A DNA stretch of 64,000 bases from an uncultured Planctomycetota bacterium (GTDB lineage Bacteria > Planctomycetota > Planctomycetia > Isosphaerales > Isosphaeraceae). The stretch lies in contig CAWJTV010000015.1 in NCBI GenBank assembly GCA_963845755.1, forward strand, positions 1 to 64,000, in the 5' to 3' direction. Every line of letters begins with the position of its first letter. The stretch's first letter is position 1. The translations under genes and the position numbers were made by a program. The notes below the pieces were generated by a model that saw only the letters and a list, made by a program, of their open reading frames with translations, ran no database searches and was not told where the DNA came from. Positions 16,201 through 53,693 of the stretch are shown here, one piece after another.

Positions 16201-17518
16201 GGCGCGCTCAACAATAAGTTACCGAAATTGGTATTGACGGACGACGGCAGGTTGGATGATATTTCCGAGGATGCCGAACACACAAGTCGTCGAATGGATT
16301 CGTGAGAAGTATTCCGCGATTGTCGGGGACTTGGATGAGCGCGCTCGAAGGCGATGGGCCGCAGTGGAGGCGCGGTCGCTCGGTTGGGGCGGCATCGAAG
16401 CGGTGGCTGCTGCTACAGGGATGTCGGACCGCACGATTCGAACCGGGATTCGGGAACTGGATGATCTCAACTCGCCACCGCCGACCCAACAACGCCGGTC
16501 TGGCGGCGGCCGTAAATGCCGCGAGTCCGAGCAGCCGAAGCTCGTCGAAGCCCTGCAGAAGCTGGTCGATGCCGGCGCGCGAGGCGACCCCATGTCGCCA
16601 CTCCGATGGACGTGTAAGAGCACGCGGACGTTGGCGGATGAGCTGGCGCGAGACGGGTTCGCGGTGAGCGCCAACACGGTGGGCCGACTCCTGCATGAGT
16701 GCGGCTATAGCCTGCAAGCCAACCGCAAGACGATCGAAGGCAAGCAGCATCCGGATCGTGATGCACAATTCCGACACATCAGCAAGCGAGTCACCGCCTT
16801 CCAGCGTGCGGGACAGCCGACCATATCGGTGGATACGAAGAAGAAAGAGCCCCTGGGAAATCTCAAGAATCCGGGTCGCAGTTACCGGAGGAAGGGAGAC
16901 CCCAAGAAGGTCAAGACCCATGACTTCCCGGACAAGAAGCTCGGCAAGGCGGTGCCGTACGGGGTCTACGACCTGGCCCACAACGAAGCCGGCGTGTCGG
17001 TGGGGATCAGCCACGATACGGCCGAGTTCGCGGTCGCCGCGATTCGTCGCTGGTGGGAGCGCCTGGGGCAACCCAGATATCCGCGAGCGACGCGGTTGCT
17101 GATCACGGCCGACAGTGGGGGCAGCAACAGCCCGCGAACGCGCCTCTGGAGGTGGGCCGTTCAACAGTTCGCCAACGAAACGGGCCTGGCAGTGGAACTT
17201 TGCCACTATCCACCGGGCACGAGCAAGTGGAACAAGATCGAGCATCGGCTCTTTTGCCACATCACCCGCAATTGGCGAGGTGTTCCCCTGGAGACCTTGG
17301 AGATCGTCGTCAAGCTGATCGGCTGCACGCGAACCAAGGAGGGCCTGGAAGTTCACGCTTGGCTCGACGAGAATCACTACCAGAAGGCAAAGACCGTATC
17401 CAGTATGCAATTATCCGAAGTCCTCATACGCCGTAACAGTTTTCACGGCGAGTGGAATTATCAGATACGACCGCACAGAAAACAGAGCCAAATTCGGTAA
17501 CTTATTGTTAAGCGCGCC
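16201..17518 (+). mobile_element. Intact ISAzo13-family insertion sequence
   Basis: 31-bp TIRs GGCGCGCTyAACAATAAGTTACCGAAwTTGG flanked by TAAG direct repeats (16197-16200, 17519-17522). Confidence 0.92.
16271..17500 (+). CDS. ISAzo13-family transposase
   Basis: GDPMSPLRWTCKS, ISVDTKKKE, LLITADSGGSN, PPGTSKWNKIEHRLF, FHGEWNY. Confidence 0.93.
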   Translation: MPNTQVVEWIREKYSAIVGDLDERARRRWAAVEARSLGWGGIEAVAAATGMSDRTIRTGIRELDDLNSPPPTQQRRSGGGRKCRESEQPKLVEALQKLVDAGARGDPMSPLRWTCKSTRTLADELARDGFAVSANTVGRLLHECGYSLQANRKTIEGKQHPDRDAQFRHISKRVTAFQRAGQPTISVDTKKKEPLGNLKNPGRSYRRKGDPKKVKTHDFPDKKLGKAVPYGVYDLAHNEAGVSVGISHDTAEFAVAAIRRWWERLGQPRYPRATRLLITADSGGSNSPRTRLWRWAVQQFANETGLAVELCHYPPGTSKWNKIEHRLFCHITRNWRGVPLETLEIVVKLIGCTRTKEGLEVHAWLDENHYQKAKTVSSMQLSEVLIRRNSFHGEWNYQIRPHRKQSQIR

Positions 17519-17656: not shown

Positions 17657-18849
17657 CTAACGCGACGCCGCGGTCGATTCCAGACCGTCGTGCTCAGGTC
17701 GATTCCTCCAGGGCTTTGATGAGCGTCGGTAGGGCCCGATGCCCCTTGACCCGGCGGAACTTCCTCTCGGCGCGCAACAGCCCCGCCACGCACGACCGCC
17801 GCCGCATGTCGCCGTCACGCCAGCGGGTCACGCGCGCCGTCACACGCCGCCTCACCGAGAGGGCCGGCTCGATCGGGTTGGTCGTCGCCAGCGTCCGCCG
17901 CAGCGCCCCCGGCACGCCCAACCGCACCACCGTCAGCGTCTCCTCCAACAAAGGTTGAAGGCTGAAGGCTGAATGAATTCCGTTCGGACTCATCCTTCAT
18001 CCTTCCACGAATGTCCAGGCCCCGCGCTTGCAGGTCCTCCAGCAGCGCCACACAGACCGTGGCGTTCTCGGTGGCGCCTTGGCGCAGGCCGAGGACGCGC
18101 TCGGTGCCATCCGCGGTGATCCTCGCCGCCACGATCATCGTCTCGCCAGCGTACTCGACGCCATCGATCATGAGCTCCGGGAAGCTCGTGCCGTCGAAAC
18201 GGCGTTCGGCCAGGGCCTTGACCTGCGCCGCGGAGGCCCGGACAAAGTCCCGGCTGACGCTGGATTTCTTGACTCCGAAGCCGTCCGGTGTGAGGTCGAT
18301 AACGTCGGCATAATCACGAGTGCTCACACCACGGGCCATTCGGCGAAGCACGGCCTCGGGCATGGCATCGGGAAATTGCAGTCGGACGTAGGTCTCCATC
18401 GAGACCTCGCCGCCCCCGTCGGTGCCCTGCACGCGGGGACGGGCGATGGGGATCTTCTGACCAGCGAGGGTCGCCGTACCGCGTTGGTGGCCGTACCGGG
18501 TGTGTGTCCGGTGGGGCTGACGCTCATAGCGTGGCCCGCACAGCCGCGTCACCTCGTCCTCCAGGAGGCTCGAGGCGACCAGCATGCCCAGTTTGAGCGC
18601 CAACCTCTCCAGGGAATCCTGCATCAGGCCGAGCAACTCATCGCGATCAGGGAGAGCTGGATCTCGCGGTCGGCTGCCCCGATGGGGACAGCAGGCTGGG
18701 CCGGCTCGGGCTTGTGGGAGTCGTGTCGCTTCGCATCGGCTCGTTTCAAGGCGGTTCCTCTTTCCTCGTCAAGGGAAAAGCCGCGTCCAGTCTAGCGACC
18801 GGACGGGAGGAGCCGCCCACTTCACTTTTCAACTAAGATCGGGACACCC
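17657..18849 (-). pseudogene. IS256-family element with internally deleted transposase
   Basis: EDEVTRLCGPRY, RGVSTRDY, LMIDG, GLRQGATEN, then a jump to LEETLTV...TTNPIE...AERKFRRVKG; left end GGGTGTCCCGATCTTAGTTGAAAAGTG at 18849. Confidence 0.88.
17950..18008. repeat. Heptamer-repeat hairpin element
   Basis: AAGGTTG-AAGGCTG-AAGGCTG ... CATCCTT-CATCCTT at the IS256 deletion junction. Confidence 0.75.
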
Positions 18850-25143: not shown

Positions 25144-26295
25144 TCATCGACCTTGTACTGGACCAACCTTGTCGGGGGCTGGCGACCGGAAGAAGGGGTC
25201 GTTCGCGAGCTGATGGGCGAGCGCTTCGTACCCTTCGGCGAGCGGATGGCTGGCATCGCCATATTGCTCGCTGGGTAGCGGCGGCGGGACCGCGTGGGGG
25301 ATTCTCTTTTCGGTCAACCACGCCGCGATCGTGGCCTTGACCTGCTGATAGCGTCGCAGACTCGCCGGAGTAAGCAGATGCTCATTAAAGGGTCCGACGA
25401 GTACGAACACCCGGTTTCCTCGTTCAAGAAGGAGCTCGACCACGCCCCGGAAGGCCTGCCATTGCAACGACGTATCCAGCTCGACCCAGGAATAGTCCTG
25501 CTTCGCGATGCCGCTCTTATACCAGGGCTGCGATGCGTGTCGGCGCGAATTGTCCGAGGGAGGTAGTCCCCGGCTGAGCGGCGTCAGCGGGTTGTCATAA
25601 GGGTGCTCCAGGGTCCAGCCGGGGATATCCGCCCGGTCGTAGTACGCTTGTTGCAGGTGGGCCGTCCAGGTGCTCAGGGGCAACCGACGCTCCACGAGGA
25701 CGCCCAGGCGCGGCGAAATCTCCGCCTTGTAGGCCGGAATGCTCGGCGCGAACTGCGGTACCAGCCGAGGGTGGTTGAAGTCGTCCGTCCGGTCGTCTTG
25801 CAAGTCGGCCCGGCGCGAGCTCATCCACAGCGGGTTGCACTGGATCAGGACATTCTTGCCGGAAATGCTCTCGGCGTAGAACTCGACCAGCCCACCGAGC
25901 GCCAGAGGGTGGGCGCCGTCCAGGCCGAGGTTGGCGAACCGCTCCTGCCCGGCCAGAACGTTGAGATAATGGGCCAAGGTCTCCTGACGGGTCGCGTACT
26001 CGCCCCAGATGACCGAATCACCGATGAGCAGGGTGTCGTAATGGTCGGAGGCCAGTCCGGCATAGGACTCGTAGAGCCAGTAATCGTTGCTCAGGTCGTG
26101 CGGGATCCGATAATCGGGCTCCAGCGCGAACCGTTCCGCCCGTCGCCACAACGAGGGGGTGAAGATGAAGATCGCAATCGCGAAGAGCGCGAGGCCGAGC
26201 CACTCCCGGCCGGTGAGGCGAATGCCATTGGAGAGCGCGATCGCGTCCGGCTCGACCGACGACCGGTTTGTCCTGTGACTCTCCGGCTCTTGCAT
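25144..26295 (-). CDS. Membrane-anchored SGNH-fold protein (AlgJ/PatB/DltD-like acyltransferase)
   Basis: N-terminal TM helix; LIGDSVIWG (block I), NLGLDG (II), QCN (III), GDASHP (DxxH); directly downstream of the MBOAT gene. Confidence 0.75.
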   Translation of the reverse strand: MQEPESHRTNRSSVEPDAIALSNGIRLTGREWLGLALFAIAIFIFTPSLWRRAERFALEPDYRIPHDLSNDYWLYESYAGLASDHYDTLLIGDSVIWGEYATRQETLAHYLNVLAGQERFANLGLDGAHPLALGGLVEFYAESISGKNVLIQCNPLWMSSRRADLQDDRTDDFNHPRLVPQFAPSIPAYKAEISPRLGVLVERRLPLSTWTAHLQQAYYDRADIPGWTLEHPYDNPLTPLSRGLPPSDNSRRHASQPWYKSGIAKQDYSWVELDTSLQWQAFRGVVELLLERGNRVFVLVGPFNEHLLTPASLRRYQQVKATIAAWLTEKRIPHAVPPPLPSEQYGDASHPLAEGYEALAHQLANDPFFRSPAPDKVGPVQGR

Positions 26296-26318
26296 CGTCC
26301 ACACTCCATACGGCTCGA

Positions 26319-27765
26319 TTAGAACTGGAAATAGATGAACTGTTTGGTGCTCGGCTGGGCCACGATCGCGATGTAGGCGATCATGAGCGCCGCCAGGCCC
26401 AGGCGCACGGGCTGCACGTCGAGCCACCCTCTCAGCGACGACCGGCTGGTGTAGAGGAGCTGATAGACCCATACGGCCATGACAAGAACACCCATCACCA
26501 GCGGGAAGCGCGGGTCCGCCCAGCCGGTCGTGAAGATCCGGCTGATGATCACCCAGGCGTCGGTCAGGCTCTGCGCCGGAAGAAGATCCAGGTGAACGTG
26601 ACGAACGTGAAGACGGCCAACTGCTTGACCGGACGCGGAATCCGTTCCCGGTAGAATTCGGTCTGCTCTACCTCGCGGGTCAGGCAGCGGCCCAGCGCGT
26701 GCAATCCGCCCCAGACGACGAACGTCCAGGCCGCACCGTGCCAGATGCCCGAGACGATCATAGTAATGAACATATTGATGTAAGTGCGGAACGTGCCATG
26801 GCGGCTGCCGCCCAGCGGGAAGTAGAGGTAATCCTTGAACCACGTGGACAGGCTGATATGCCAGCGGTTCCAGAAATCACCGAGGCCCGTCGCCGCGTAG
26901 GGGTTGTTGAAGTTCAGCATCATGCGAAAGCCCATCAACGAGGCGATGCCGCGGGCCATGTCGGTATAGCCGCTGAAATCGAAGTAGATTTGCCAGCCGA
27001 ACGCCACCGTTGCCAGCAGGAGCGCGGCGCCTGGTACAGTCCGGGGTTACCGTAGACCGGGTCCACATACTGGGCCAGGTAGTCGGCCAGCGCCACCTTC
27101 TTGAAGAACCCCACGAGGAACAGCGACAGTCCATCGGTCAGGTCCTGCCGCGTGATCGTCGGGGTCCGCTGGAGCTGAGGCAGCAGGTTATGGGCACGCT
27201 CGATCGGACCGGCGACCAACTGGGGGAAGAACGAGACGAATGTCAGGAACCGCACGAAGCTGCGCTCGGTCTGGATGACGCCGTTGTAGGCATCGATGGT
27301 GTAGCTCATCGACTGGAACGTATGGAAGGAGATGCCGATGGGCAGGATCACCTTGGTGAAGAATCGATCCTCCGGGACGCCCAGGAGCGAGAGCAGGGCG
27401 TTGGGATACGCGATGGGGTCGGGCAGCATCGCGGAGAACCCCAGATGAGCCAGGAACGAATTGAGGTTTTCGGTGATGAACCCGGAGTACTTGAAATAGC
27501 CGAGGAAGCCGAAGTTGCTGACCAGGCTGACCACGAGCCAGAACGTGCGCGTCCGCGTGCTCCGTTCCATCAGGAGGACCATGAGATAATCGATCGCCGA
27601 CGTCCCGAAGAGCAGCAGAAGGTACCAGGGATTCCACCACCCGTAGAACGTGTACGAGGCGATCATCAACCAGATGTTCATCAACTGGTTGTTTCGGCGG
27701 ACGAGGAGGTAGACGGGATAGACGATCAGGAAGAAGACGAAGAAGACCCAGGTGTGGAAGAGCAT
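26319..27765 (-). CDS. MBOAT O-acyltransferase, AlgI/PatA type (two frameshifts, ~27025 and ~26578)
   Basis: LPIGISFHTFQSMSY, FFPQLVAGPIER, FDFSGYTDMA, FWNRWHISLSTWFKDY, SGIWHGA, C-terminal FIYFQF. Confidence 0.92.
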
Positions 27766-27801
27766 GGTTGCCTCGAAAGGATGAAGCAAGATACGTTTGA
27801 A

Positions 27802-28675
<874 letters not shown>

Positions 28676-28679
<4 letters not shown>

Positions 28680-29731
28680 TTCGCCGCCCCCTCCTTGACC
28701 ACGACCCAGCTCGGTTGCTTGCAGGACTTGCCATCGTCGGTAATGGCGACCCAGCGATTCTTCTGCGTCGCGTCGGCCACGCACACGTTCCAGCCCGGTG
28801 CCTCGACTCCGGGGAATTCCGGCAACAGGCCCTTCAGGTTCCGACCCTTGAACTTGGGCCCGCGCGTGAACGTGAGGTATTTCATGTCCGGCGACCAGGT
28901 GATGTGATAGGTCTCGACGGGGTTCTTGCTCTCGACGACGTCATGGACGTTGGTCGCTTTCGGAGTTGAACTCGACAGGTCCAGATCCGCGACGCCGGCG
29001 CAATAGTCGCCGTGACCCCAACAGACCTTCTTGCCATCGGGGCTGATGTTGGGCCGGCAGCCTTCGAGCTTGAGATCGACGACCTTGTTGCCCTCGGCCT
29101 CGATGGCCAGGATGGTGTGGGAGAACCCCATGCCTCCGTGAACCGTGGCCACGAACCAATTGCCGTCGGGCGAGCAGTTCAGGGTGTAGAGATGGTGCAA
29201 CTTGTGGTTGACGTGTTCGCGCGTCTTGCCGGTCTTGAGGTCGAAGAGGAACAGTCCATGGGTCGCGGCATCGAAGTAGGTGAATTTCTCGAATTCGCCC
29301 TTCATGTAGGCGATCTGGGTCCCATCGGGGGTCCAGCAGGGCTCGCGGCCGTTCTCGGCGACCTTGGTGCGGCCCGTACCGTCGCTGTTCATGTAATAGA
29401 TGTTGCGGACCTTCGCATCTCCCTTGCCCTCATCGGCGACGAAGCCGATCTTGGTGCCGTCGGGTGACGGCTTGGGGTACAGCTCATCCATGTCCGCGGT
29501 GCGCGTCAGATTGGCGGAGTGGGAGCCATCGGCGTTGCAGAGGTACAGCTCCCAGTTGCCGTCACGGTTCGTTTCGTAGACGATCTTGTGCCGGTAGTTC
29601 GCGAGGTCGGCCAGCAGGTCGCTGGAACCATCCGCCGGTTTCTCCCCGGAAAACGCATCCGGCGGGTAACCGAGGAGAACCGTCGCCGTCGCGAGGACGG
29701 CCAGCCCCAAGGCAGTTCTGAAGCGATTCAT
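28676..29731 (-). CDS. Secreted TolB-like PD40 beta-propeller protein
   Basis: Signal peptide; repeated P..SPDG.KI units; stop overlaps the next start. Confidence 0.85.
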
Positions 29732-29804
29732 GGTGTCTCCTCGAGCGTTGATCGCCCTCGGGCATTTGAAGGATGAGCAAGTCTCTGTGTGATCAATCAA
29801 TCGG

Positions 29805-31541
29805 TCATTCTTCCGAGGGATGCCAGTCCGGCAGGGTATTCGACCCTTCCCGGGTCATTTGTACGAACTCCTCTTCGTCGGCGTCCAGACCTTTCAGGCA
29901 AATCTGCCACGGGCCTTCGGGCGAAGGTGCCCGGCAAAAGAGGATCATCGTCCCATCGGGCGAGTAGCGGGCATCGTGCTGAACGTCGGCGCCGAAGGTC
30001 ATCTGTTCCCAGTTCCTGCCGTCCACATCGACCTGGTGGATGTGGCCCTGGACCGTCTGGCAAAGGACTTTCTTGCCGTCCTTTGACCATTGCGGCGTAC
30101 AGCAAGGCTCGCCGGCCTTGAGCCGGAGGTTCTCCTGGCCGTCCAGGCTGAGGATGAAGATGCCAATGTCCCCCAGGTGCCGACTGGCGACGGCCAGGTG
30201 TTTGCCGTCCGGGGCGAAGGATGGAACTCCGCAGCGCTCCCATTCCTTGGGAGTGACGCGTCTCTCCTGGCCGGAGGCGAGGTCTCTGACGAAGGTTTGG
30301 TTGTCCTGGATCAAGAGGATCGACTTGCCGTCCGGCGCCCAGCTCCCCTGCGATCCCTTGGTGACGAAATGCGGCTCGGAGCCGTCGCGATTCATCAGCC
30401 AGATCTCGGGAAAGCCGCCGCGCAGCGTGGTGTAGAGGATCTGCTTACCGTCGGGTGAAAAGGTCGGATCGGCGTCGGGGTCACTCCCGCTGGTGAGCGG
30501 TTTCGCACCCTTGCCACTGGCGTGCATGGTCCAGATTTTCAGCGTGCCGCCGCGATCGCTGACAAAAACGATCGTGCCCTTGAGACGGGCCAGGTCGATC
30601 CGGCCGGAACCCGGCTCGGGACTGACCACGGGCGCGGACACTCCGCCAGCCGGCTTAGCCACGGCGTTGGTCGGGACCCGAACTGCCTTCGGGCTGGCCG
30701 CCACCGCGACCGGTGGATCTCCCGCAACGGCCCTCCGCGCCCGCCGGAAACCATAACTGTCGGCGCCGAAGCAGGCGTCGGAGTAAACCGGGAACTCCTT
30801 GTGACGGTAGGCCGCCCGGAGCTTCTCGGCGGTGCAGTCCCACGCACCGCCGCGCAACACGCGCATCTCACCGGTCAACGGACCATGCGGGTTCTCCTCG
30901 GAACCCTCGTTGTAGTAGGTTTCGCCGTAACGGTCGTGGCACCATTGCCAGACGTTGCCGTGCATATCGTAAAGCCCCCACGCGTTGGGCTGCTTCTGGC
31001 CGACCGGACGGGTTTTGCCTTGCGAATGTGGCTTGAACCAGGCATATCTCGGGAGCTCGGTCTCGGGACCGCTGAAACCATACTTGCCGGTGTTCCCGGC
31101 GCGACAGGCATACTCCCATTCCGCCTCGGTAGGGAGCCGATAGCCGTTGGCGCCGAAGTCGCATTCGAAGGTATCCGCGTTGTAGCAGGGCGTCAGCCCA
31201 TCCCGCTCCGAACATCGGTTACAGAAGGTGATCGCGTCGGTCCACTGCGTCTTCTCGACCGGATTTCTCTTGCCCTTGCGCTTCGAAGGATTGAAGCCCA
31301 TGACCGCTTCGTAGAAGTCCTGGGTCACGGGATACTTGTCGAGGTAGAACGCGTCGACCGAGACCGTATGCGGCGTTTCGTCGGGACGACCCGCTCCGTC
31401 TCCCATGGTGAATGTGCCGGCCGGGATCAGGACCATCTCGCTGGCGACGGCCTCGGTCGCCGGGCTGCCGGACTCCCTCCGCCCGCAGCCGGAGACCACG
31501 ATCACGACAGCCAGTGGCGCCCACAACCTGCTCCTCGACAT
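29805..31541 (-). CDS. Lipoprotein: FGE-sulfatase domain fused to a PD40 beta-propeller
   Basis: VSGC lipobox; RLPTEAEWEYACRAG, GLYDMHGNVWQW; C-terminal FVSDRGG and SPDG repeats. Confidence 0.88.
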   Translation of the reverse strand: MSRSRLWAPLAVVIVVSGCGRRESGSPATEAVASEMVLIPAGTFTMGDGAGRPDETPHTVSVDAFYLDKYPVTQDFYEAVMGFNPSKRKGKRNPVEKTQWTDAITFCNRCSERDGLTPCYNADTFECDFGANGYRLPTEAEWEYACRAGNTGKYGFSGPETELPRYAWFKPHSQGKTRPVGQKQPNAWGLYDMHGNVWQWCHDRYGETYYNEGSEENPHGPLTGEMRVLRGGAWDCTAEKLRAAYRHKEFPVYSDACFGADSYGFRRARRAVAGDPPVAVAASPKAVRVPTNAVAKPAGGVSAPVVSPEPGSGRIDLARLKGTIVFVSDRGGTLKIWTMHASGKGAKPLTSGSDPDADPTFSPDGKQILYTTLRGGFPEIWLMNRDGSEPHFVTKGSQGSWAPDGKSILLIQDNQTFVRDLASGQERRVTPKEWERCGVPSFAPDGKHLAVASRHLGDIGIFILSLDGQENLRLKAGEPCCTPQWSKDGKKVLCQTVQGHIHQVDVDGRNWEQMTFGADVQHDARYSPDGTMILFCRAPSPEGPWQICLKGLDADEEEFVQMTREGSNTLPDWHPSEE

Positions 31542-31645
31542 CAGTTATCCTCTCTCCGTTCTGGGAGCTCCGAATCGCCCGATCGGGAATCTCGAACGAC
31601 ACGCCAGGACCCTGGGATTTGCGCACTTCGGGTCGAGATTCCGCG

Positions 31646-33499
31646 TCAATGCCGCGCCCCTTCATGGTTCGCCGGATTACGTAGCGCCTCCTGCGTCCGG
31701 GCGCGGATCTCGGAGGCGATCGGGGCCACGCGGGGATCCCGGGCCACGAGGATTCCCGCTCGTTGCCGCAGGGCCTTCACCACCCAGCGACATTCGCCCG
31801 ACAGCTCGTCCTGGTTGTCGCCGATCTCCACCAGCGCCCGGGCGTACGCCCGGCATTGCTTCAGCGCGTCGGGGCCGTCATTGTCCAGGACCTCCTTGCG
31901 GAAATCCTGATTCATCCGCGCGACATGCTCCGGCGTCTTGATCTTGGCGGCGCGAGCCGCGACCCGCGCGTCGATCTCTCGGGTGAGCGCGTCCATCTCC
32001 GCGATGAACTCGGCCAGTTCCGGATGCACCGCCTTCTGGCCAGCGAGGTACTCCTGCATCTTCTTGCCGAACTCGACGTAGCGCGTGATCCGGCCGCGGA
32101 TGTGCTTGACGAACGTCAGCCCATTATCGAGGATCTTGTCGATCTCGGCACGCTTCTTCTTCTGCTCCTTCCTCTGGTAGATGGGCGTGAGGGTATCGCG
32201 CACCTCGCAGGTTGCCTGGCCCTTGTATTCGGATTTCTGCCCTTCCAGGTCGAGGATGTGCTGGCACGGGCCGACGCCCAGGGTATTGCGCATCACGTCG
32301 ACCACGGTGTACATATCCAGGGGCGTTTGTGCCACTCGGTTGATCGGATAGATGACGACCGGCCCCTGGAGTTTGAGGACGCGGCTCTTGAGGGGTTGCA
32401 GGTAGCCGCGCTGGTCGGGGTCCGACCAGCACGGGTAGGGGTACTGGCCCAGGACCGTGTTCCATCGCATCCGGTTGCCAGGGATCTCCTCGTCGCCGCC
32501 GCCAAGCCAGGAGGGCTTGACGTACTCCCCGTCTTTCCGCGCTTGCAACAGCATTTCCCAACTGTCGGTCAAGTCATTGGAGCGGGTGAAATCGACGCGC
32601 CACTGGGCCGAGAAGGGCATTTTCCAGTCCATGGGGATGACCTTGCCGGTGTCGGCGGTCTTCACGTCGCGCGTGTGCCAGATCTTGGGGGCTTCCATCA
32701 GTGCCGCCCAGATCGGCTTGCCTTCGAAGCCGATCTCGGACCCCGTGATGATGCGCCGGTCATCCTGGCCGGAGAGCGTGATCTTCATGTCCTTTTGCCG
32801 ATTCTCAAAGACGCACATGGCGATGGCGTCACCCTCGCCGATCAGGTGCAGGAAGAAGTTCTCGCTGGGCAGCTCGACCGCATCCAGGGGCAGCCGGGTG
32901 GCATCGATGGTGATGTCGTCGGCGAAGAAATCCGGAAGGACACCGAAGCGACCCGGGCACTCGACTCGCAGCTTGCCCGCCCCGGTCCCCGGCACCGCCT
33001 GGACGGAGACATCGCCCCGCTTGATGCGGAACTGACCAGCGACCTCGACGCCATTTGCGGTCTTGAAAGTCGCTTCCAGGCAGGCGCCTCCTCGGGAGTT
33101 CTCGACGACCGCCATGCGCTCCACACGAGTGGCGGGCTCTCCCGCGGCCGTCAGTAAACGCAACCGCAGCCGCGCGGTCGCGCGGCCCTGCTTCACGGCA
33201 TGGACTTCCACGGCCGAATCCTGCCGGCGCAATACGGCGACGACCCGGCCATTGCTCAGGATGGCGTCGCCTTTGAACGAATCGGGCGTCTCTCCCAACG
33301 GTATGGCGGTCCAGTCATTCTGGCCCGCCAGGGCCGATGGCACCAGAGCTTCCGCGGCCGGCTGGCCCGTGTCCCAGACGACGATGCCGGTCCTCGGCCT
33401 GGCCGGGGACGTTGGCTGCGCGGCGGGGCTCCAGGTCGCACCCATCTGCGCCAGGGCCATGAGAGGTACGACGATTCGGGCAACCACGGGCCATCGCAT
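31646..33499 (-). CDS. Large secreted hypothetical protein
   Basis: 617-aa ORF with signal-like N-terminus, beta-rich middle and helical C-terminus; no family recognised. Confidence 0.75.
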   Translation of the reverse strand: MRWPVVARIVVPLMALAQMGATWSPAAQPTSPARPRTGIVVWDTGQPAAEALVPSALAGQNDWTAIPLGETPDSFKGDAILSNGRVVAVLRRQDSAVEVHAVKQGRATARLRLRLLTAAGEPATRVERMAVVENSRGGACLEATFKTANGVEVAGQFRIKRGDVSVQAVPGTGAGKLRVECPGRFGVLPDFFADDITIDATRLPLDAVELPSENFFLHLIGEGDAIAMCVFENRQKDMKITLSGQDDRRIITGSEIGFEGKPIWAALMEAPKIWHTRDVKTADTGKVIPMDWKMPFSAQWRVDFTRSNDLTDSWEMLLQARKDGEYVKPSWLGGGDEEIPGNRMRWNTVLGQYPYPCWSDPDQRGYLQPLKSRVLKLQGPVVIYPINRVAQTPLDMYTVVDVMRNTLGVGPCQHILDLEGQKSEYKGQATCEVRDTLTPIYQRKEQKKKRAEIDKILDNGLTFVKHIRGRITRYVEFGKKMQEYLAGQKAVHPELAEFIAEMDALTREIDARVAARAAKIKTPEHVARMNQDFRKEVLDNDGPDALKQCRAYARALVEIGDNQDELSGECRWVVKALRQRAGILVARDPRVAPIASEIRARTQEALRNPANHEGARH

Positions 33500-33637
33500 G
33501 AGGCATCCCCTTGCTCAAGGTCGCTGCAAGAAACCCCGGTCCTTCCACAATTCAATGTCTCGGACGGACGATTCGCGGGAATCGATCTCGACACGAACAG
33601 CGCGATTCTACCCCAACAGACGATGGCTGACACTATA

Positions 33638-34344: not shown

Positions 34345-35322
34345 TCATCGCGGGGGGCTCGAGCCGTTTCCCGCTTCGAGCCAGAGGCGAACCAGATGGC
34401 GGCGACGCTCGGGTTCGGGGTGGTCTTCGAACGCCGTCCGGTTGTGGAGGATCCAGCGGTTATTGATGAAGTACACCTGGCCGGGTTCGAGGGAGAATTC
34501 CGCGCGCAACGCGGGCCGGTTCAACACCTCGTCAAGCCGGTCGAGCGCCTCGGTCTGGGCTGGGGTCAGGGGTTGGCCGGCCTTCCCGTGCCCGGCCTCG
34601 ATCCAGTAGCGGAGATAGCGGAAGAGCGGCTCGGGCCCCTCGCGTTCGATCACCGGCCGGAGGACAGTGGGCGTCTCCCCCTCCCGGACACCCCCCCGAC
34701 GGTCCACGTGGAAAGGCCGGCCGAGTGTCTCGAGCGCATCGGGATGTTCGTGGCGGAGCCGCTCGACGACGGCCAGGCCGTTCACGAGCTGGCTCACACC
34801 CCCAGCTCGCGCTGTCTTCAGGCAAAGCAGGCCGACATAATCGACGACGGTCTCACCGAAAGAGTTGTCGGTGTGGAAGCTGCTCTCGTAATTAGTGACG
34901 GAGAAGCGGGCTCCCTTCGCGACTTCCTGGCCGCTGTCCCGGACGTCGTACAGGAGTGTCCCCTGCACGTTCTGGACAACAGGCTCGCCGAGCAGTTGAC
35001 CGATCATCCAGTAGAGAGCGATCGCCTCCCGCTCGGAGATCCGCTCCACCGGCAGCCGGTCGAGGACGACGAAGCCGTGCCCCCGTTCCAGGTCGTGCTT
35101 CGCGGACGTCAGGTAGCCACGCAGGGCCGTTCTGTCTTGCTCCGTGAGACGCATGCCAGGAATCGGTCCTTCGCCCCAGGCTCGCTCCTCAACCAAGGAT
35201 CGCAGGTGGGCCATCAAGGCGTCTGGCAAGAGACAACTCCAACCGGCTGTGTCCCCTACAGTCGCGGCAGTCCACGATTTCGGGCCAACGGCGGGCTCGT
35301 TCGAATCGGTTTCGCTGGGCAT
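34345..35322 (-). CDS. TauD/TfdA-family Fe(II)/2-oxoglutarate dioxygenase
   Basis: FHTDNS (HxD), LLCL..A..GG.S, NNRWILHNR, RRHLVRLW. Confidence 0.88.
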   Translation of the reverse strand: MPSETDSNEPAVGPKSWTAATVGDTAGWSCLLPDALMAHLRSLVEERAWGEGPIPGMRLTEQDRTALRGYLTSAKHDLERGHGFVVLDRLPVERISEREAIALYWMIGQLLGEPVVQNVQGTLLYDVRDSGQEVAKGARFSVTNYESSFHTDNSFGETVVDYVGLLCLKTARAGGVSQLVNGLAVVERLRHEHPDALETLGRPFHVDRRGGVREGETPTVLRPVIEREGPEPLFRYLRYWIEAGHGKAGQPLTPAQTEALDRLDEVLNRPALRAEFSLEPGQVYFINNRWILHNRTAFEDHPEPERRRHLVRLWLEAGNGSSPPR

Positions 35323-35339
35323 GAAAGATTCCCAGTCTC

Positions 35340-38036
35340 TCAAGGGGTGATGAGGTAGTAGATCGAGCTCGGGAACCAGGCGGATCTCTCTTGCCGTCCC
35401 GGTTGACTTGCCCGGCTCGCCGTTGAAGTCGAGCGCGGTCACCTTGAGGTGGGAGGCGTCGGCTCGCTTGAGCTTCACCACACCGTCGATCTCCTTCACG
35501 AGCCAGGGGTCGTGGCCGGTGCTCGCGATCTTCTTCTCGCCGCCCGGCGCCGGCTCGGTGCGGAAGTCGGTGGGCTTTTCCTCGGACATGACTTGCAGGA
35601 GGATGCGCCGTGAGGTCGCCAGGGGCAGGCCGTCGAGGCTGACCGCGACGATGTGGCCGAGTTCCATCTTCGACGCGATGCTGAGGTCCTTCAACTCGGC
35701 CGCGCCCGCCTCGCGGAGGGCGCCGCTGATCCCCTGCGCCGCGGGCGCGTCGATGGTGAGGACACCCTTGCCGTAGTCAAGCCGGAGCTGGCCCGTGGTG
35801 CTGCTGACCACCTGGCGCCGGCGGTCGATGAAAGGCTTGAGGTCCTTCAGCCGCGATGAGCCGCCTCGTTCGGTGAACCGGACGTTGGTCCGCCCGGCGA
35901 AATGGACGAGGGGGTCGATCACGTTGCCCGGCTTGAGGGTCGTCCCTTTCGGAACGTCCTTGAGCCGAAGCTCGTCGAGCGCCGCGTCCTGGGGCAGGGG
36001 GGTACCCTTGAGGTCGAGGAGGTCGCCGACCTTCAGGTCCAGGTCGACCAGCAGGTCACCGGTCGCGACGAGACCCTTGCGGTAGATCAGGGCGGCGGCT
36101 GGGAACTGGCCCATCATCGCGGGCGACATCAGCGTCCAGGGCTGCATGAAGAAGCCCGGCTTGACCGACCAGGCCGCCGTGTCGAGCGCGAAATGGACGA
36201 TGGCGTCGCTGTCCTGCAAGGCGCCGTAGGCCGCGTAGAACAGCGGGGCCTCCGATCGGTAGCGGTTCGGTCGGTTCCAGGTCGTCTCCGAGATCATCGA
36301 GGGCTTGCCGTCGTAGCTGGGATCCATCGCCGGGTGGACGAAGACCTTGGGCTTGCCGGGCTCCTCGGGGTCGAAGCGCAGCGCGCTGCGATCGGCGTAG
36401 GTGTGCCCGTCGCGGACCGACCACTCCGACGCCTCGCCCCGGCTGCGGCAGCCGAAGTAGCCATGCCGGTCGATGAAGTCGGTGACGGTGTAGCTGTACT
36501 TCTCGAGCGGGCCGAACACCTCCGGGCTGGCGGTGATCCAGTTCGACGCGGTGATCACACCCCGGAAACCCAGCCCGCGCAGGAACTCGTACATCTCGCG
36601 ATAGAACCCGCGCTGGCTTTCGACGAGGAACCGGACCGTATCCTTGTCGCGGCCGGTCTTCTCGTTGAACATGTTCCAGAGGGGCCGGAACCCCACGCGA
36701 ACCTCGGCCGGGCGATCGCGGCCGATCTTCTGGCCGCCCCAGGATCGCAGTGCCCGGTCGATCGAGCCATACTTTTGCTTCAACCAGGCGCCGAACTGGG
36801 TCTCGATGAGCCGCAACTCGGGGTCAGGGATCGCGTCGGAGTTGAACGTCCAGAAGAGATACGAGTCCTCGTTGAGGATCTCAAGGCCCGCCACGGCCGG
36901 GTCGTCGATTAACCGCGGCGGGTCGAGGGGTTGGGCGTCAGGAGCAGGGCCTTCCACCAGTCCTGGTAGTGCCGCTGGAATTCCTTGTTGAAGAAGAGCG
37001 CCGCGAACGCCACTTTCTGGCCGTCATAGCCCTTCAGCCAGGTCGTATCGGGCTTCGGCCTCAGCCAGAGCGGGAAGAAAATCGAGAAGTGGCTGTAGAT
37101 CCCCTCAGCCTTCATTGCCTCGACAGCGTCGAAGGCGTGTCGCACCGCAGCCATGTCAACGTCGCCCTTCTCATCGAAGTAACTGTGGTGGACGCGGACG
37201 AGGTTCACGCCGTGTTTGGCGAGCATCCGCGCCTCCGTTCGGAGCTCAGCCAGTGCCTTGCTCGACGGCCCGTTCACCGCCCAGAACCGGACCGGCTCGC
37301 CCGACCGAGAGTGCACGAACTGCGATCCCCTGACTCGAATGAAGCCGCCATCGCCGGCCGCCTTCTCGTTCAGCGATCGCAGGTTGATGCCGCTAGACGG
37401 GGAGAAACGGTCGGGCTTTGGGTCGAAAGCGAACCAGCCCTTGTCTGCCGCGGCCGCGCGGCGGGAGAACTCGGCGAGCTGGTCGGGCTTCACGGCGCCC
37501 CGCGGTGTAAACGGCTCGTTGGCGAAGACGAAACAGTCGATGTAGCCGTGATTATGATTAGGGCTGTCCATCCGGAACCGGATCGTATTGGTTCCCTTCT
37601 TCAACGAGACCTGACCGGCCCGCGCCCAGGCGAGGAAGCGCAAGTCGGGCTTCTCGTCGGCGGCGATGTTGGTCGAATCGAGCCCCCGATCGACGTCGAT
37701 CGCCGTCCAGGAGCCGTCGTTGAGCCGGTACGAGAGCCTTGCCTGTACGGGGTTGGCCCGCACCCAGAACTCGTAATCGCCGGCCGAGGGAGCGGTGAAC
37801 TGATACACGGCCTCGCCAGGCTGTTCGTGGAAGTTGCTGATCAGATCGCCGCCGGAGAGCTGGTCGCGCTTGACCAGGTCATACCAGTACGGGTGCCGGT
37901 GCATCGTAGACGAGGCCGGCTTTTCGCCCTCGACCCAGATCCACGCCGACCGCGCGGGCGGGGTCGGGACGATCACGGCCAGGACGAGGAACGCGCACCG
38001 TACCGGCCATCGGATGGAAACGGCCCTTGATTTCAT
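35340..38036 (-). CDS. Secreted glycoside hydrolase-like protein with N-terminal CBM-like domain (frameshifts ~36915 and ~35372)
   Basis: WVEGE CBM-like start, VRFWAVN, GVNLVRVH, EILNEDS (acid/base-like), DRHGY, PSMISE (nucleophile-like): clan GH-A pattern. Confidence 0.72.
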
Positions 38037-38203: not shown

Positions 38204-40105
38204 TCAGCCGGGCGGAACGAACTGGGACAGAAGCAGGGTGTAGACAGCCTGGTAGTAGATGGCGGGTTCGGTAATCTCCCACGAAGCCTCGTTCGCACCG
38301 CGCTGGGCGTTCCAGGCTGCGTTCCAATCGCGGTAGGCTTTCATGGGCGGCTCGCCATGGGGGGGGCGAATCCACTCGACGCTGAAGAACTTGTTCGGGC
38401 CACCCGCCAGGTAACCCGGCGCGGGCCCGTAGCGGCTGCCCTGACCGTCGTAGAGCGGCGAGCCGTCGTGGAACCAGAGATGGTAGATCTCGGTGACGCA
38501 CCGATCACCGCCCGCGTGGGCCATGTTGGTCAGGTAGCAGAACGCGAGCGGGTTGCGGCCGTGAATGAAGTGCAGGTAACCGGCCATGATCTCGCGGTAG
38601 GCCGGATGCTGTTCGGGGTTCAATCCCAGGGCCATGGCCATCAGGAGGATGCGGCCCCAGCGGCCCTTAACCTGGTTGCTGCCCCAGCAATAGTGGTCCG
38701 CGTAATGAAAGGCGAGGTAGGGATCATCCGGCCCGCCCGTCGCCCCGCGGATCGCCTCCGCCATGTGTGCCAGCGCGTTACGGAACCGCCTGGTCACGGC
38801 CGGCGTCGCACCCGGGGTCGTGGAGTAAACGAATAGGGCCTGCGTCAAGGCGACGTGGTTGAGCGGGTCAACCTGCTGACCGTCTCGGAACGGATGCAGA
38901 CCATTCTCCGCCGTCGCCGCGACGTTGGGTGCCCAGCGGTTGAACATACGCCTTGAAGGCCGGATCGCCCACGGTCTTGAAGAGTTGGGCCGCGGCGTTT
39001 ACTCGAGACCGGCGGTCGGCATTGATGTTGCTGCCCGCCGGGGTCGCCGCCAGGGTCTTGTCGCCATCCGAGCCGTCGGCCGGATCCATCTGGGGGTGGG
39101 CCTCGAGGTAGGCCCAGGCCCGCGCGCGGCGCCGCGAAGGCGGTCCGAATAGCCGGGGAACGTGCGATCGTAGCGAACGTAAACTCGCGTGGCCTGGGCG
39201 AAGCTGGCGGCGGCCGTCGCGGTCGCCCATGTGGTCTTGGCGGAGTAGAACCGAGGTTGCCTGTCGGTGTTGGGCGGATCCGGGCCGTTATCGAAACTAC
39301 GCCCAGCGACTCGATTGAAGACCCCACCATCGGTATCCTGCATTTTCAATAGCCAATCGAGCTCCCACTTCACCTCGTCGAGCAGGTCGGGGACGCCGTT
39401 GCCACTCTCCGGAATAGTCGTGTCGTCAGGGAAGATTCGTGGATGAAGCTCATAGGCCCACAGGAGATCGAAAAGCGTGGTTTCCAGGTAGGGCACGTAC
39501 TTGTTGGGGTCTCCCGCGTCGAACCAGCCGCCGAGCAGGTCGCGTGGGCGACCTAGCGACTCGCCTCCCTGCGTGTACCGCGCCGCGCGGTCTTGTTCCG
39601 GCCCGAGTTGACCGCCGCGGTGATGCCAGTTTCCACCGTACTGGGCCAGGATCGGCGTCCCGCTACGTTGGTAATAGAAGGTCCGCACGGAATCCCTCAG
39701 GACCAGCCGGTAGACGTCGTCGGCAATCCGGAACGGGAACGAGCGGACTCGATTGGCGGGATCATAGAGGTAGTAACTGCCGGAGGCGCGGACGTCGCTG
39801 AAGTCCGCGTACCAGACCCGATCTCCGCACAGTTCGCTGACCTTGCCCCCGTTCCATGGCTTTAGATTTCCGCGATGAGCCACCGTGCCATCGGCCTGTC
39901 GTCGCACCTCGTATGTAGGACCGGGACGGTAGCGCGCACCCGCGTTCTGCCCCCGGACCGCCTCGGCGAAAATCGCCGTTTTCCCGGCCCGAGGCAGCCA
40001 CCCGAACTGGTCGATCGTGATCTGGGGCGTGACCACTGCGTCATCAGCCTGGGCCATCTTGGTGAAAAGGAATGCCGGGAGACTCACCATCAGCCAGAAC
40101 GCCAT
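38204..40105 (-). CDS. Glycoside hydrolase family 9 with N-terminal Ig-like domain (frameshifts ~39130 and ~38950)
   Basis: IDQFGW, FYYQRSG, GGWFDAGD, DEVKWELDWLLKMQ, WGSN, GRNP, PGYLAGGPN, EPAIYYQA. Confidence 0.9.
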
Positions 40106-40259
40106 CAGTGCGCCACGGCGCGACCTACAACGAACTGGCCGTCCTTTCGTCGTCAACACCGGTCCCTCCTTCTCGACACTAAACCCGGCGGCCAACCCTC
40201 GAGGCGCCGCCAGGGCCGTCTACCGCACAAGACCGCCAGGTCATCGTAACATCCAGAGA

Positions 40260-43355: not shown

Positions 43356-43971
43356 GTCGGAGCGCGACGGCAGTCGTCCGACCTGGCGATCGACATGGAG
43401 GCTGGTCACGATCATGCGAGATTGGTCACGGTGGACGGCGCCCGCACTGGTCACCCGCGATGATCCTGGAATCAGCTTCGCGGACGGGTTGATCACGCTC
43501 CGGCTCTTCCCGAACTGGGGCTTCCGGGTTCCATGCCGATTCCAGGTGGATGTCCCCAAGATCAGGAGAGGTGATGGTAATTGACGGCACATCACGTTTT
43601 TCGGATCGTAGAGTCTTCCTTGAATGCTACTTTCATCACCGACAATTAGAGCACGATGTTCGACCGTCTTCGTCGACCCTCATCTGTCCATCTCCAATCC
43701 GCTGACGTTGCGCTCGCGTGTTCAAAAACGGATGGGTCAACCGCATACTTCTCGATTCTGGTTCAGGCCACAAAAAAATGTACCGAACGAGCATCACAGT
43801 CTTGTATTAGAGGCTTTTCGGCGACGGAGCAACGAAGTGTTCGTGTGAAAATGTTGCGAATAAGCAACACAACCTTGTTTGTGCGCTCGACTCGATTTAT
43901 AACGTCGGTCAGCGAAATCGTCCTGGGCAAGATTGCATCCTCGCTCCATCTCGGGGAAGAGGGGTATCTCG

Positions 43972-44949
43972 ATGCGCGCCTCAAGAGGCGTCTCCCGTTT
44001 CGTGTGGCTCGCCGTCGTCATCTTCCTCGCCGGGATCATCGGGTCGCCGAGGTCCGCCCGAGCCGGCAGGCTGGGTCTCCTCGTTCCGTCGTATTTCTAC
44101 CCCGGAACCGGCGGTCCCGGCCGCGTCGGCGACGGCTGGGCCGCGATGACGGCCGCGGCCAGCCAGGTCCCCGTCACCGCCATCCTGAATCCGAACAGCG
44201 GACCATTACCCGGGCCGCCCGATCCGAACTATGTCGGCGCCATGACCAACCTGGAAAATGCGGGCGGCCACGTCGTTGCTTACGTCTACACGGATAACGG
44301 GAATGAGAATGGAACTGCGCCCCTCGCCACTGTGGAGGGCCAGATCGCCACTTATATCAGTCAATATGGAAAGCTGATCAATGGTTTCTTCCTCGATGGG
44401 ATGTTTATCACCCCGAGTACCCTGTCGTATTATCAAAGTCTTACTAGTTATATCAAAGGTCTTGGCGCTTCCTACACGATCATCGGGAATCCTGGTCAGC
44501 CGTTCCTGAACGGCGTCGCGCCCCAGGACTACTTGTTGACCGCCAACGTCTTCAACATCTTCGAGGGGCCGAACACGGCCCCCAGCCCCGGCGCCCCGGG
44601 ATTCAACGATTATCCCTACGGCGTGACCTGGTTTCAGGGTTACCCGAGCAATCGGTTCTCGAACGTGATCCTTGATGTCCCAGATTCGGCGACCATGCTC
44701 GCCGACCTGGGCAAGGCGGTTCGATTGAACGCCGGCTATGTTTATATCACCGACCAGTCCGGAGCCAACCCCTACAGCCAGTTGCCGTCTTACTGGGACG
44801 AGGAGGTTTCCGCTATCGCATCGGTGCCGGAACCTCGAGCCTTGACGAATTTTGCGTCGGCCGCTGTGTGCGGGTCCCTCGTCATGACCCTTCGGTGGTG
44901 CCGCCGCCGGCGCCGGGCACAACCCTGTGACGAAGCCTCGGTGGTGTGA
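43972..44949 (+). CDS. Spherulin-4 (GH135-like) protein with PEP-CTERM-like tail
   Basis: LLVPSYFYP, ILNPNSGP, GFFLD, IGNPG, FEG, YVYITD..NPY..LPSYW; VPEP + TM + basic tail. Confidence 0.85.
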   Translation: MRASRGVSRFVWLAVVIFLAGIIGSPRSARAGRLGLLVPSYFYPGTGGPGRVGDGWAAMTAAASQVPVTAILNPNSGPLPGPPDPNYVGAMTNLENAGGHVVAYVYTDNGNENGTAPLATVEGQIATYISQYGKLINGFFLDGMFITPSTLSYYQSLTSYIKGLGASYTIIGNPGQPFLNGVAPQDYLLTANVFNIFEGPNTAPSPGAPGFNDYPYGVTWFQGYPSNRFSNVILDVPDSATMLADLGKAVRLNAGYVYITDQSGANPYSQLPSYWDEEVSAIASVPEPRALTNFASAAVCGSLVMTLRWCRRRRRAQPCDEASVV

Positions 44950-53300: not shown

Positions 53301-53693
53301 GAAATCCTCGCCGCGCTGACTGGCAAACAACACGTTTTTCCCATCAGGCGTCCAGTCCAGTACGGATTCGTCGGCGGAATGGACCGTCAGGCGCCGGACT
53401 GCCCCGCCGCCGGCCGGGATCAGATAGACGTCCATGTTCCCCTCGCGGTCGGAGGAGAACGCGATCCATCGACCGTCGGGCGAGAACTGCGGATAGATAT
53501 CACGGGCCTTGTGCACAGTCAAACGCTGGAGATTCTTCCCATCCTCATCGGCCGTCCAGATGTCGCCAAGATAGGCAAAAGTAAGCTTGCCTGCATGGTA
53601 ATCCGGGTAACGGACCAGTCGGGCTTCGCGGGCGGTCGCCAGGTGAGGGATGCTGAGGAGCATGGTCAGGTAGAGCGGGATGCGTCTCATCAT
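50306..53693 (-). CDS. Tricorn-like S41 protease (PD40 propellers, PDZ, S41 core); several frameshifts
   Basis: YLGDIW, WRKYYRG, YRFYDPKLHG, MIGELNASH, GYLHI, DERWNGGG, SASNAE, GKVVGTPT. Confidence 0.88.

Follow-up and report, generated by a model that had tools for sequence, protein, structure and literature searches.

A stretch of 64,000 nucleotides of contig CAWJTV010000015.1 (assembly GCA_963845755.1), from an uncultured member of the Planctomycetota belonging to the Isosphaeraceae and called here, in its whole length, the window, contains at positions 25144-33499 a cluster of six genes, g1 to g6. On balance, we regard this cluster as part of an extracytoplasmic acylation system that extends across the Planctomycetes-Verrucomicrobia-Chlamydiae (PVC) bacteria, is built on a relay of the PatA/PatB type and is tied to periplasmic glycan-handling proteins. 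A PatA/AlgI-type MBOAT (g5) and an SGNH-type protein (g6) very probably constitute the relay. Beside them are encoded a large secreted protein (g1), two lipoproteins with the fold of the formylglycine-generating enzyme (FGE; g2 and g4) and PD40 (TolB-like) beta-propellers in g2 and g3, and it is likely that these accessory genes are functionally coupled to the relay. A preliminary description of this DNA had put the cluster forward as a candidate uncharacterised system; this holds for the accessory proteins and the substrate, which are new, but not for the core, which matches the described PatA/PatB type.

In the model that we propose, g5 would take an acyl group from cytoplasmic acyl-CoA, and its conserved His would load the group, on the outer side of the membrane, onto the Tyr of the protein's own C-terminal FIYFQF. 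The membrane-anchored g6 would accept it on the Ser of block I and hand it on to a hydroxyl group on a polymer of the envelope. The acceptor polymer is most likely a glycan, and the modification itself most likely an O-acetylation. The FGE-fold lipoproteins g2 and g4 would probably have an accessory role as non-catalytic, lectin-like binding modules, and the propellers of g2 and g3 as scaffolds, while g1 probably binds the same polymer. The glycan acceptor, the acetyl identity of the group, the acyl donor and any physical complex among these proteins are elements that we infer, with peptidoglycan or a secreted polysaccharide as candidate acceptors.

Known targets of MBOAT/SGNH pairs are peptidoglycan, alginate, cellulose and teichoic acids, and the decoration of these polymers affects lysozyme resistance, biofilms and immune recognition. 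The envelopes of Planctomycetota, Verrucomicrobiota and Lentisphaerota have long been disputed, and we know of no system of this kind that has been studied in any of the three. Our full-text literature search, which did not cover subscription journals, found this combination of genes described nowhere. The chemistry of the relay can be predicted residue by residue, and the cluster adds three kinds of accessory protein that are used by no known acylation pathway. Identifying the acceptor would expose a new envelope modification in a major environmental phylum, and would give a function to FGE-like proteins that are at present annotated as 'SUMF1/EgtB/PvdO family nonheme iron enzyme'.

A probable PatA/PatB-type relay in g5 and g6

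All six genes lie on the minus strand, co-oriented and closely spaced as the preliminary description had it. The MBOAT gene, g5 (26319-27765), runs across three frames, and its middle piece matches Pfam MBOAT (PF03062) at an E value of 7e-17, with 62.1 bits against a cut-off of 27. Its catalytic-His motif is FWNRWHISLS. In an intact homologue from a related locus (L001:15944-17389; related loci are designated by L numbers), whose closest solved relative is DltB 8jem (E 1.3e-29), this motif aligns with FWNRWHMSLS of DltB. The NCBIfam DltB score of the MBOAT is 110, far below the cut-off of 375. The protein ends in FIYFQF (26322-26339, minus strand), an FXYXXF acyl-tyrosine shuttle motif with the stop codon directly after it, and FIYF[QD]F followed by the stop forms the end of the MBOAT in all 19 loci that hold its C-terminus.

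The stop codon of the MBOAT is separated by 23 nt from the start of g6 (25144-26295, minus strand), which encodes 383 residues with a single N-terminal membrane helix as an anchor. Four sets of residues, G92-D93-S94, N122/G124, N154 and D347/H350, are invariant in 15 of 15 aligned g6 sequences. From this alignment we read them as the SGNH blocks I (GDS, 26014-26022), II (G), III (N) and V (DxxH, 25246-25257). The family affiliation of g6 is looser. Lipase_GDSL_2 is matched by six of the 15 homologues at E<=1 (best 7.7e-6) and DltD, weakly, by two (E 0.084), whereas no g6 sequence matches the PatB family, or solved PatB by sequence. Against PDB, a single-sequence search gave no match and a profile search a best E value of 0.031. 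In the Protein Atlas, the nearest named clusters are DUF1574/LB_356, DltD and GDSL_2, with scores of 0.93-0.97; DUF1574 is listed in PMC9487903 as an SGNH-clan family of unknown function.

Systems of the PatA/AlgI type normally have neither a carrier protein nor a ligase. The Pfam scan of the operon likewise finds no polysaccharide synthase, carrier protein or ligase, in line with what had been read from the letters before. According to Anderson et al. (J Biol Chem 2025; PMC12148441), PatA acetylates itself from acetyl-CoA on the Tyr that is invariant in a C-terminal FXYXXF motif (NgPatA ends in FIYANF), the SGNH protein PatB takes the acetyl-Tyr peptide as donor, the same motif is located on DltX in the Dlt system, and a mechanism common to bacterial MBOAT/SGNH pairs is concluded. 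With the tyrosine shuttle on the MBOAT and the Ser/Asp/His set of g6, the relay of the window is therefore complete without the FGE proteins.

Conservation and linkage of the cluster

To survey related loci, one genome per species was scanned with the g1 alignment as bait; of 193 relatives the best 80 loci were kept, many of them on short contigs, and the window proteins were compared with them by tblastn at E<=1e-6. These loci come from Isosphaerales, Gemmataceae, Pirellulaceae, Planctomycetaceae, Thermoguttaceae and Brocadiia, and further from Lentisphaeraceae, Victivallales, Kiritimatiellia and Limisphaerales; two metagenome-assembled genomes (MAGs) among them are labelled Anaerolineales. 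The closest locus is that of an Isosphaerales MAG, with a g1 81% identical to that of the window. Across the PVC lineages, homologues of g1 co-occur with FGE-fold, PD40, MBOAT and SGNH genes in several gene orders, which supports the earlier suggestion of a conserved, uncharacterised cluster around an MBOAT/SGNH pair.

Sequence of 1 kb or more downstream of g1 is available in 64 loci, and in 33 of these a same-strand FGE gene has its start inside that first kilobase. Where at least 7 kb is available on both sides (27 loci), FGE genes are present in 19, PD40 genes in 14 and MBOAT together with g6 in 14. The order g1-g2-g3-g4-g5-g6 recurs in L001, L008, L011, L022, L024 and L028, and with inserts in L002, L029 and L035; an alternative order, g3-g4-g5-g6-g1, is found in L012, L025, L049 and L067. 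A third module consists of PD40, a distant g1 paralogue (23-31% identity), g1 and FGE (L044, L056, L065, L072, L075, L078-L080). Divergent orientations occur in L018 and L065, inserts of 1-2.4 kb are tolerated, and g1 may stand at either end. MBOAT contexts are spread over each of the three main branches of a rough tree of 85 g1 sequences, obtained by neighbour joining from BLOSUM62 distances and without support values.

Such an arrangement is very unlikely to be due to chance. When 829 filtered open reading frames (ORFs) were clustered, the g1, FGE/PD40, MBOAT and g6 families were represented in 78, 44, 23 and 18 loci, respectively, and the next family in nine. FGE-type domains number 60 in the 654,554 bases that lie within 3 kb of a g1, MBOAT or g6 match, as against one in the remaining 470,282 bases of the same 80 loci, a density approximately 40-fold higher near the cluster genes.

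The other recurrent neighbours of g1 copies that stand alone form only lineage-limited sets in two to four loci, among them PT-HINT, Rce1-like, DUF2617, PQQ propeller and transglutaminase-like genes, and no theme unites them. At L049:8202-15157, four tandem g1 paralogues, approximately 50-54% identical to the g1 of the window, lie between g6 and an FGE-PD40 gene. Large proteins that combine an HZS_alpha middle domain with Laminin_G_3 or F5/8 type C domains adjoin g1 at L012:11752-15378 and L016:1986-5384.

FGE-fold lipoproteins and PD40 propellers

Both FGE-fold proteins carry a lipobox (VVSGC in g2, 29805-31541; APLSC in g4, 27726-28679; both minus strand) and match Pfam FGE-sulfatase, g2 in residues 34-268 at 1.5e-46 and g4 at 2.6e-54; g2 in addition matches PD40 (4.6e-20). 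In 36 of 48 FGE ORFs, a lipobox-like motif is found ahead of the domain. Between the two lies g3 (28676-29731, minus strand), a secreted PD40 propeller protein (2.2e-12) whose likely start is the ATG at 29731, in an ORF that is open back to 29800. The stop of g3 and the ATG of g4 overlap (ATGA), and orthologues of g3, 60-83% identical, adjoin g4-type genes. The last approximately 30 residues of g4 are unconserved and overlap the start of the MBOAT.

The motifs of SDAC/GFR and PCYNxDTxxCDF type that were quoted in the preliminary description are present in the translations (AGFSDACLARDAIGFRC and PVYSDACFGADSYGFRR; KPCYNEDTGACDFEANGY and TPCYNADTFECDFGANGY), with SDAC at 30771-30782 in g2 and 27867-27878 in g4 (both minus strand). 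Alignment to the Streptomyces FGE 2q17 bears out that the catalytic CxxxxC pair, which in true FGE follows the RGGS motif, is absent from g2 and g4: in g4, 'swkspadalrst' stands opposite 'SYLC-HDSYCNR'. Across 56 FGE-domain sequences there is no conserved Cys at the position of the catalytic pair. A single Cys of g2 (WDC, 30834-30842, residues ~234-236) does coincide with the first of the two catalytic Cys in true FGE, but it is unconserved, the consensus of g2-type sequences there being Ser (48%).

Conservation of the SDAC Cys, which the earlier reading had made a point of interest, is high: 96-97% in the same 56 sequences, in both gene types. It is one of six Cys (g4 positions 121, 133, 141, 160, 215 and 271) that are each at least 91% conserved. 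Because their number is even and the protein is exported, they suggest three disulfides rather than a free thiol; the positions of Cys 121 and 160 are those that we take to be structural disulfide cysteines in human FGE.

The best solved match of g4 is TvpA, a variable protein of Treponema denticola (2y3c, 5.1e-38), followed by FGE (1.2e-21), PorK (3e-21) and PvdO (3.1e-15). In proteins of the TvpA type, ligands are reported to be bound on a scaffold that belongs to the FGE subclass of the C-type-lectin fold (PMC5006420, PMC6328139). We read g2 and g4 as non-catalytic lectin-like binding or scaffolding modules, neither enzymes nor acyl carriers.

One further gene of the window, at 51078-53807 (minus strand), encodes a 910-residue protein with many PD40 repeats (1.6e-48) and is the only other match there to the propeller part of the g2 profile.

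The g1 family

The gene g1 (31646-33499, minus strand) encodes 617 residues with a signal peptide and has no Pfam or NCBIfam match. Among 8000 scored candidates, 1588 are homologues at E<=1e-3, and at this threshold the family comprises at least 1120 cluster representatives at 50% identity. The best 120 homologues are 68-91% identical and, where named at all, are called 'hypothetical protein'. A g1 profile found only chance matches in PDB (E 0.2-0.4), and the Protein Atlas returned only unnamed clusters of Planctomycetota, the nearest named ones, at 0.76-0.78, being weak leads.

An AlphaFold2 model built with an alignment of 114 sequences (A3) taken from the cluster representatives is confident (pLDDT 91.5, pTM 0.87) and consists of a beta domain (residues ~40-390) and a bundle of long helices (399-606). 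It supersedes a first model from a shallow alignment of 20 sequences, which had a pLDDT of 60.7 and no Foldseek match at E<=0.001 (TM <=0.15). Foldseek now finds 65 PDB matches at E<=1e-3, with a probability of 1.0 and a TMq of 0.20-0.25. The targets are the beta-supersandwich domains of the glycoside hydrolase (GH) families GH38 (mannosidases), GH2 (beta-galactosidase), GH101, GH129 and GH81, heparinase and alginate lyases, OpgG/MdoD and the periplasmic domain of YidC (P1 domain 3bs6, TMt 0.47 over 240 columns). The Pfam scan of g1 gave no CAZyme-type domain, and its helical bundle has no Foldseek match.

Seven of 13 longer members of the family that were scanned (P0244, P0247, P0250, P0297, P0316, P0346 and P0361) bear one to four N-terminal CBM_4_9 modules, and one, P0256, has TPR repeats in their place. 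In addition, the last six codons of g1 (31646-31663) encode HEGARH, which is invariant in 20 aligned close homologues, though not in distant ones, and suggests a docking or sorting signal. Thus, g1 founds a new and large protein family, joins a galactose-mutarotase-like beta-supersandwich to a helical bundle in its model, and is probably a glycan-binding or glycan-handling protein. The link to glycans in our proposal comes from the likeness of the g1 fold to domains of carbohydrate enzymes, from the CBM_4_9 modules on its relatives and from the TvpA match of g4.

Deacetylase fusions

In some related loci, the FGE lipoprotein is fused to a domain of the histone deacetylase (HDAC) family. FGE-HDAC fusions lie directly upstream of the MBOAT at L012:5461-7152, L025:5203-7077, L049:3709-5613 and L079:1111-3000 (Hist_deacetyl, PF00850, E 1e-66 to 1e-105); a PD40-FGE-HDAC protein is encoded at L067:4730-7408 and an FGE-PD40-HDAC protein at L034:11737-14529, and a separate HDAC gene comes right after an FGE gene at L048:11010-12104, these three likewise immediately upstream of the MBOAT. 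In all, HDAC is present in seven of the 25 loci with MBOAT or g6 and in none of the 55 others; it is absent from the window. The fusion in L025 begins with the lipoprotein signal LLLAC and contains PPGHHA, DWDVHHGNG and EGGY, presumably the HDAC catalytic motifs. Its best 120 database matches all have both domains, some of them PD40 as well, and those that bear a name are entered as 'SUMF1/EgtB/PvdO family nonheme iron enzyme' or 'AcuC-like/FGE'.

The fusion of HDAC to an FGE lipoprotein beside an MBOAT links the accessory proteins to acetyl chemistry. An exported enzyme of the HDAC family would be unusual, and so widespread a fusion with a lipoprotein suggests that deacetylation takes place outside the cytoplasm. 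These observations allow a tentative extension of our model, to which we attach less weight than to the model itself: a periplasmic acetylation specific to PVC bacteria and reversible, in which MBOAT and SGNH protein would write, the lipoprotein HDAC would erase, and the FGE lectins, PD40 propellers and g1 would read or provide a scaffold. The target would then be an undescribed envelope polymer or a secreted protein such as g1, and the eraser, which the window lacks, would in many lineages be fused to the FGE lectin domain. If true, exported HDAC-family enzymes working with an MBOAT relay would represent a new kind of envelope regulation.

Alternative explanations

A number of observations weigh against the acylation system that we propose. 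The loci were chosen by g1 only, and not by MBOAT or g6. Among the 27 well-flanked g1 loci, 13 lack both MBOAT and g6 over a distance of 10 kb, and many g1 copies stand alone, some genomes having several. This indicates that g1 also works without a nearby relay. The g6 of the window has no Pfam, NCBIfam or PDB sequence match, and the Foldseek matches of g1 cover the beta domain only, at the low TMq given above, with no catalytic domain recognised. HDAC enzymes normally cleave N-acetyl amides and not O-acetyl esters, so the deacetylase need not reverse the MBOAT/SGNH reaction. The window MBOAT contains two frameshifts which, if real, would leave the system dead in this organism. Finally, neither the cluster nor the window nor the loci encode an acceptor polymer, a synthase or a glycosyltransferase, and it is for this reason that a glycan target is something we infer.

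The last point can also be turned to a narrower account, in which the cluster is the PVC counterpart of PatA/PatB and acts on peptidoglycan, the propellers and lectin lipoproteins serving as a wall tether and the HDAC variants as N-deacetylases. N-deacetylation is the other classical modification that confers lysozyme resistance. The architecture of the relay is the same as in PatA/PatB, the lack of a polymer synthase is expected if the substrate is made elsewhere, repeats of the PD40/TolB type are present, and the cluster is spread over PVC lineages. We nevertheless consider a peptidoglycan target unlikely, if worth keeping in mind: g6 resembles neither the PatB family nor the sequence of solved PatB, no peptidoglycan enzyme recurs beside the cluster, and the CBM_4_9 modules on g1 relatives, together with tandem g1 copies, fit diverse polysaccharide ligands better. 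Among the papers listed by the full-text literature search, none appeared to deal with acetylation of the planctomycete wall.

It could further be argued that the cluster has no shared function and that g1 with g2, g3 with g4, and the MBOAT with g6 are separate units brought together by regional synteny in genomes rich in gene families. The well-flanked loci without MBOAT and g6 and the lone g1 copies speak for such a view. The sole contact test, a complex prediction of g1 residues 30-617 (A3) with the FGE domain of g2, residues 20-290 (A4), scored 0.00 against a mark of 0.32 with controls that were not folded, and so gives no answer, neither for nor against binding. The linkage, however, survives rearrangement, including the placement of g1 at either end, the divergent arrangements of L018 and L065 and the inserted stretches, and it extends to Lentisphaerae, Kiritimatiellia and Limisphaerales. 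FGE domains are concentrated near the cluster genes, and wherever HDAC is fused to the FGE lipoprotein, the MBOAT is its neighbour. We therefore judge independent units to be a poor explanation, and continue to favour one system in which the accessory proteins serve the relay.

Whether this system is alive in the organism of the window depends on the MBOAT gene, whose three frames run from 27765 to ~27026, from ~27025 to 26577 and from ~26576 to 26319 (minus strand). If both frame changes were real, the cluster would be a decaying pseudogene cluster in this organism, and the occurrence of two such changes within one gene speaks for this view. Other genes of the window are split as well. A DUF1501 gene lies in two frames (2115-2960 and 2848-3489, Pfam model positions 2-176 and 185-389), a GH9 gene is in two pieces (38999-40195 and 38204-38947) with the middle of the model missing, and a hydrolase-like ORF (36909-38036) runs into an ORF of 870 residues (34345-36957), the last 240 of which form a TauD dioxygenase domain. 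These split genes suggest either frequent indel errors in the assembly or decay.

The nature of the changes points to error. Each MBOAT frameshift is the loss of a single G from a short G run. At the first site (~27025/27026), DNA alignment with L001, L011, L024 and L002 reveals one G fewer than in the homologues (GCGCC-GCGCT against GCGCCGGCGCT), and at the second (~26576/26577) a similar alignment has GG where L001 and L002 have GGG. The MAG L011, which is independent, has the same single-base gap in the GGG run at the second site (16906-16996, against 26540-26625 of the window), which suggests that sequencing or assembly errs systematically at the GGG motif. Many such breaks are found in the MAG loci L022, L024 and L028, which belong to one MFD-named series, whereas L001 and similar homologues have the MBOAT in one frame. 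Apart from these breaks, the MBOAT pieces share 80-96% identity with intact homologues, and the other five genes are intact. Losses in G runs, a gap shared with L011 and intact neighbours fit systematic indel errors. Thus, both frameshifts are probably assembly errors, the MBOAT would be intact in the organism, and real decay is improbable.

Even less probable, in our judgement, is a catabolic glycan-utilisation locus in which g1 would be a carbohydrate-active enzyme that has escaped recognition, substrate would be captured by the FGE and PD40 proteins, and g6 would be an acetyl-esterase removing acetyl groups from polysaccharide that is imported. The beta-supersandwich of g1 does resemble accessory domains of GH38, GH2, GH101, GH129, GH81 and lyases, CBM_4_9 fusions exist in its family, and the window has GH9 and a second hydrolase-like gene a short way upstream. 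Against this, g6 is always paired with an MBOAT that bears the shuttle motif, a signature of outward acyl transfer and not of hydrolysis, g1 contains no catalytic domain that could be found, and no family of transporters or hydrolases recurs in the loci.

The proposal of the preliminary description that the SDAC Cys acts as periplasmic acyl carrier or catalyst of the relay now has very little to recommend it: the residue is indeed strongly conserved and lies, by alignment, in the C-terminal region that is the ligand-facing part of TvpA-type folds, but a tyrosine shuttle is present on the MBOAT itself in 19 of 19 loci and g6 has its Ser/Asp/His set, these being the two carriers shown for PatA/PatB in PMC12148441, so that no further one is needed, the six co-conserved Cys suggest disulfides, and g1-FGE pairs occur also in loci without any MBOAT.

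Comparison with known systems

The cluster is closest to the PatA/PatB systems of Neisseria and Campylobacter, with which it shares the C-terminal FXYXXF of the MBOAT, an SGNH partner with one N-terminal helix, the Ser in block I and Asp/His in block V, and the lack of a carrier protein or ligase. It differs from them in the sequence of g6, which matches neither the PatB family nor solved PatB, and in the presence of g1, FGE-fold lipoproteins and PD40 propellers, joined in some lineages by HDAC. PatA/PatB systems have the esterase Ape1 where the cluster has its accessory genes.

Dlt D-alanylation resembles the cluster in that DltB is the closest solved relative of the MBOAT and g6 has a DltD-like architecture, with weak DltD matches (two of 15 sequences, and a score of 0.93 in the Protein Atlas). 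Anderson et al. cite Schultz et al. 2023 for DltX. In contrast to Dlt systems, the cluster has no DltA or DltC, its NCBIfam DltB score stays well under the cut-off, and the shuttle motif is fused to the MBOAT, whereas that of Dlt is carried by the microprotein DltX, as stated in PMC12148441.

The alginate (AlgI/AlgJ/AlgF/AlgX) and cellulose (WssH/WssI) systems likewise combine an MBOAT and an SGNH-like partner with periplasmic accessory proteins, and AlgX carries a carbohydrate-binding module. Their genes, however, lie inside polymer-synthesis operons, whereas the cluster has no linked synthase, and the accessory folds of the cluster (FGE/C-type lectin, PD40 and that of g1) are unrelated to theirs. 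AlgI/AlgJ-type and WssH/WssI systems are counted among the MBOAT/SGNH pairs in PMC12148441.

The FGE-sulfatase fold without the catalytic Cys pair, in a binding or structural lipoprotein, is also what characterises the TvpA-type proteins of diversity-generating retroelements, PorK/GldK/GldJ and PvdO. Unlike the first of these, g2 and g4 have no reverse transcriptase beside them by Pfam among the ORFs of the window, and no template or variable repeats were seen there, though these were not searched for. Unlike PorK/GldK, they have no PorL, PorM or PorN partners, and their scores with the GldK model (128 bits for g4 and 89.9 for g2) are below the cut-off of 350. The PvdO score is 79 against a cut-off of 500. 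TolB and the propellers have PD40 repeats in exported proteins in common, but the TolB model gives 121.8 bits for g2 and 56.5 for g3 against a cut-off of 343.15, there is no match to the N-terminal domain of TolB, and the context contains no Pal or TolA. Similarly, residues ~40-390 of g1 share their fold with the galactose-mutarotase-like domains of GH38, GH2, GH101, GH129, OpgG/OpgD and YidC P1, but identity is 6-13%, the catalytic domain is missing, the helix bundle is unmatched and no family is shared at the sequence level.

Surroundings of the cluster

An HMM search of the window found no second g1, no second g6 and no HDAC, and a scan of its 20-40 kb part against Rfam found no family. A promoter-like site with a weak consensus match lies at 33605-33633 (minus strand), approximately 100 nt upstream of g1; the scan for promoters and terminators found nothing above chance (three promoter-like sites against 1.5 expected). 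The rest of the window is typical of a planctomycete genome, with PSCyt2/PSD1 and DUF1501 proteins, Ser/Thr kinases and an ISAZ013-type transposase. Approximately 7 kb from the cluster are two transposase genes, at 16238-17497 (plus strand) and 17818-18768 (minus strand), one of them DDE_Tnp_ISAZ013 (1.7e-137) and one of the Mutator family. Further along, two Spherulin4-family genes, at 43903-44946 (plus strand) and 45269-46414 (minus strand), face each other.

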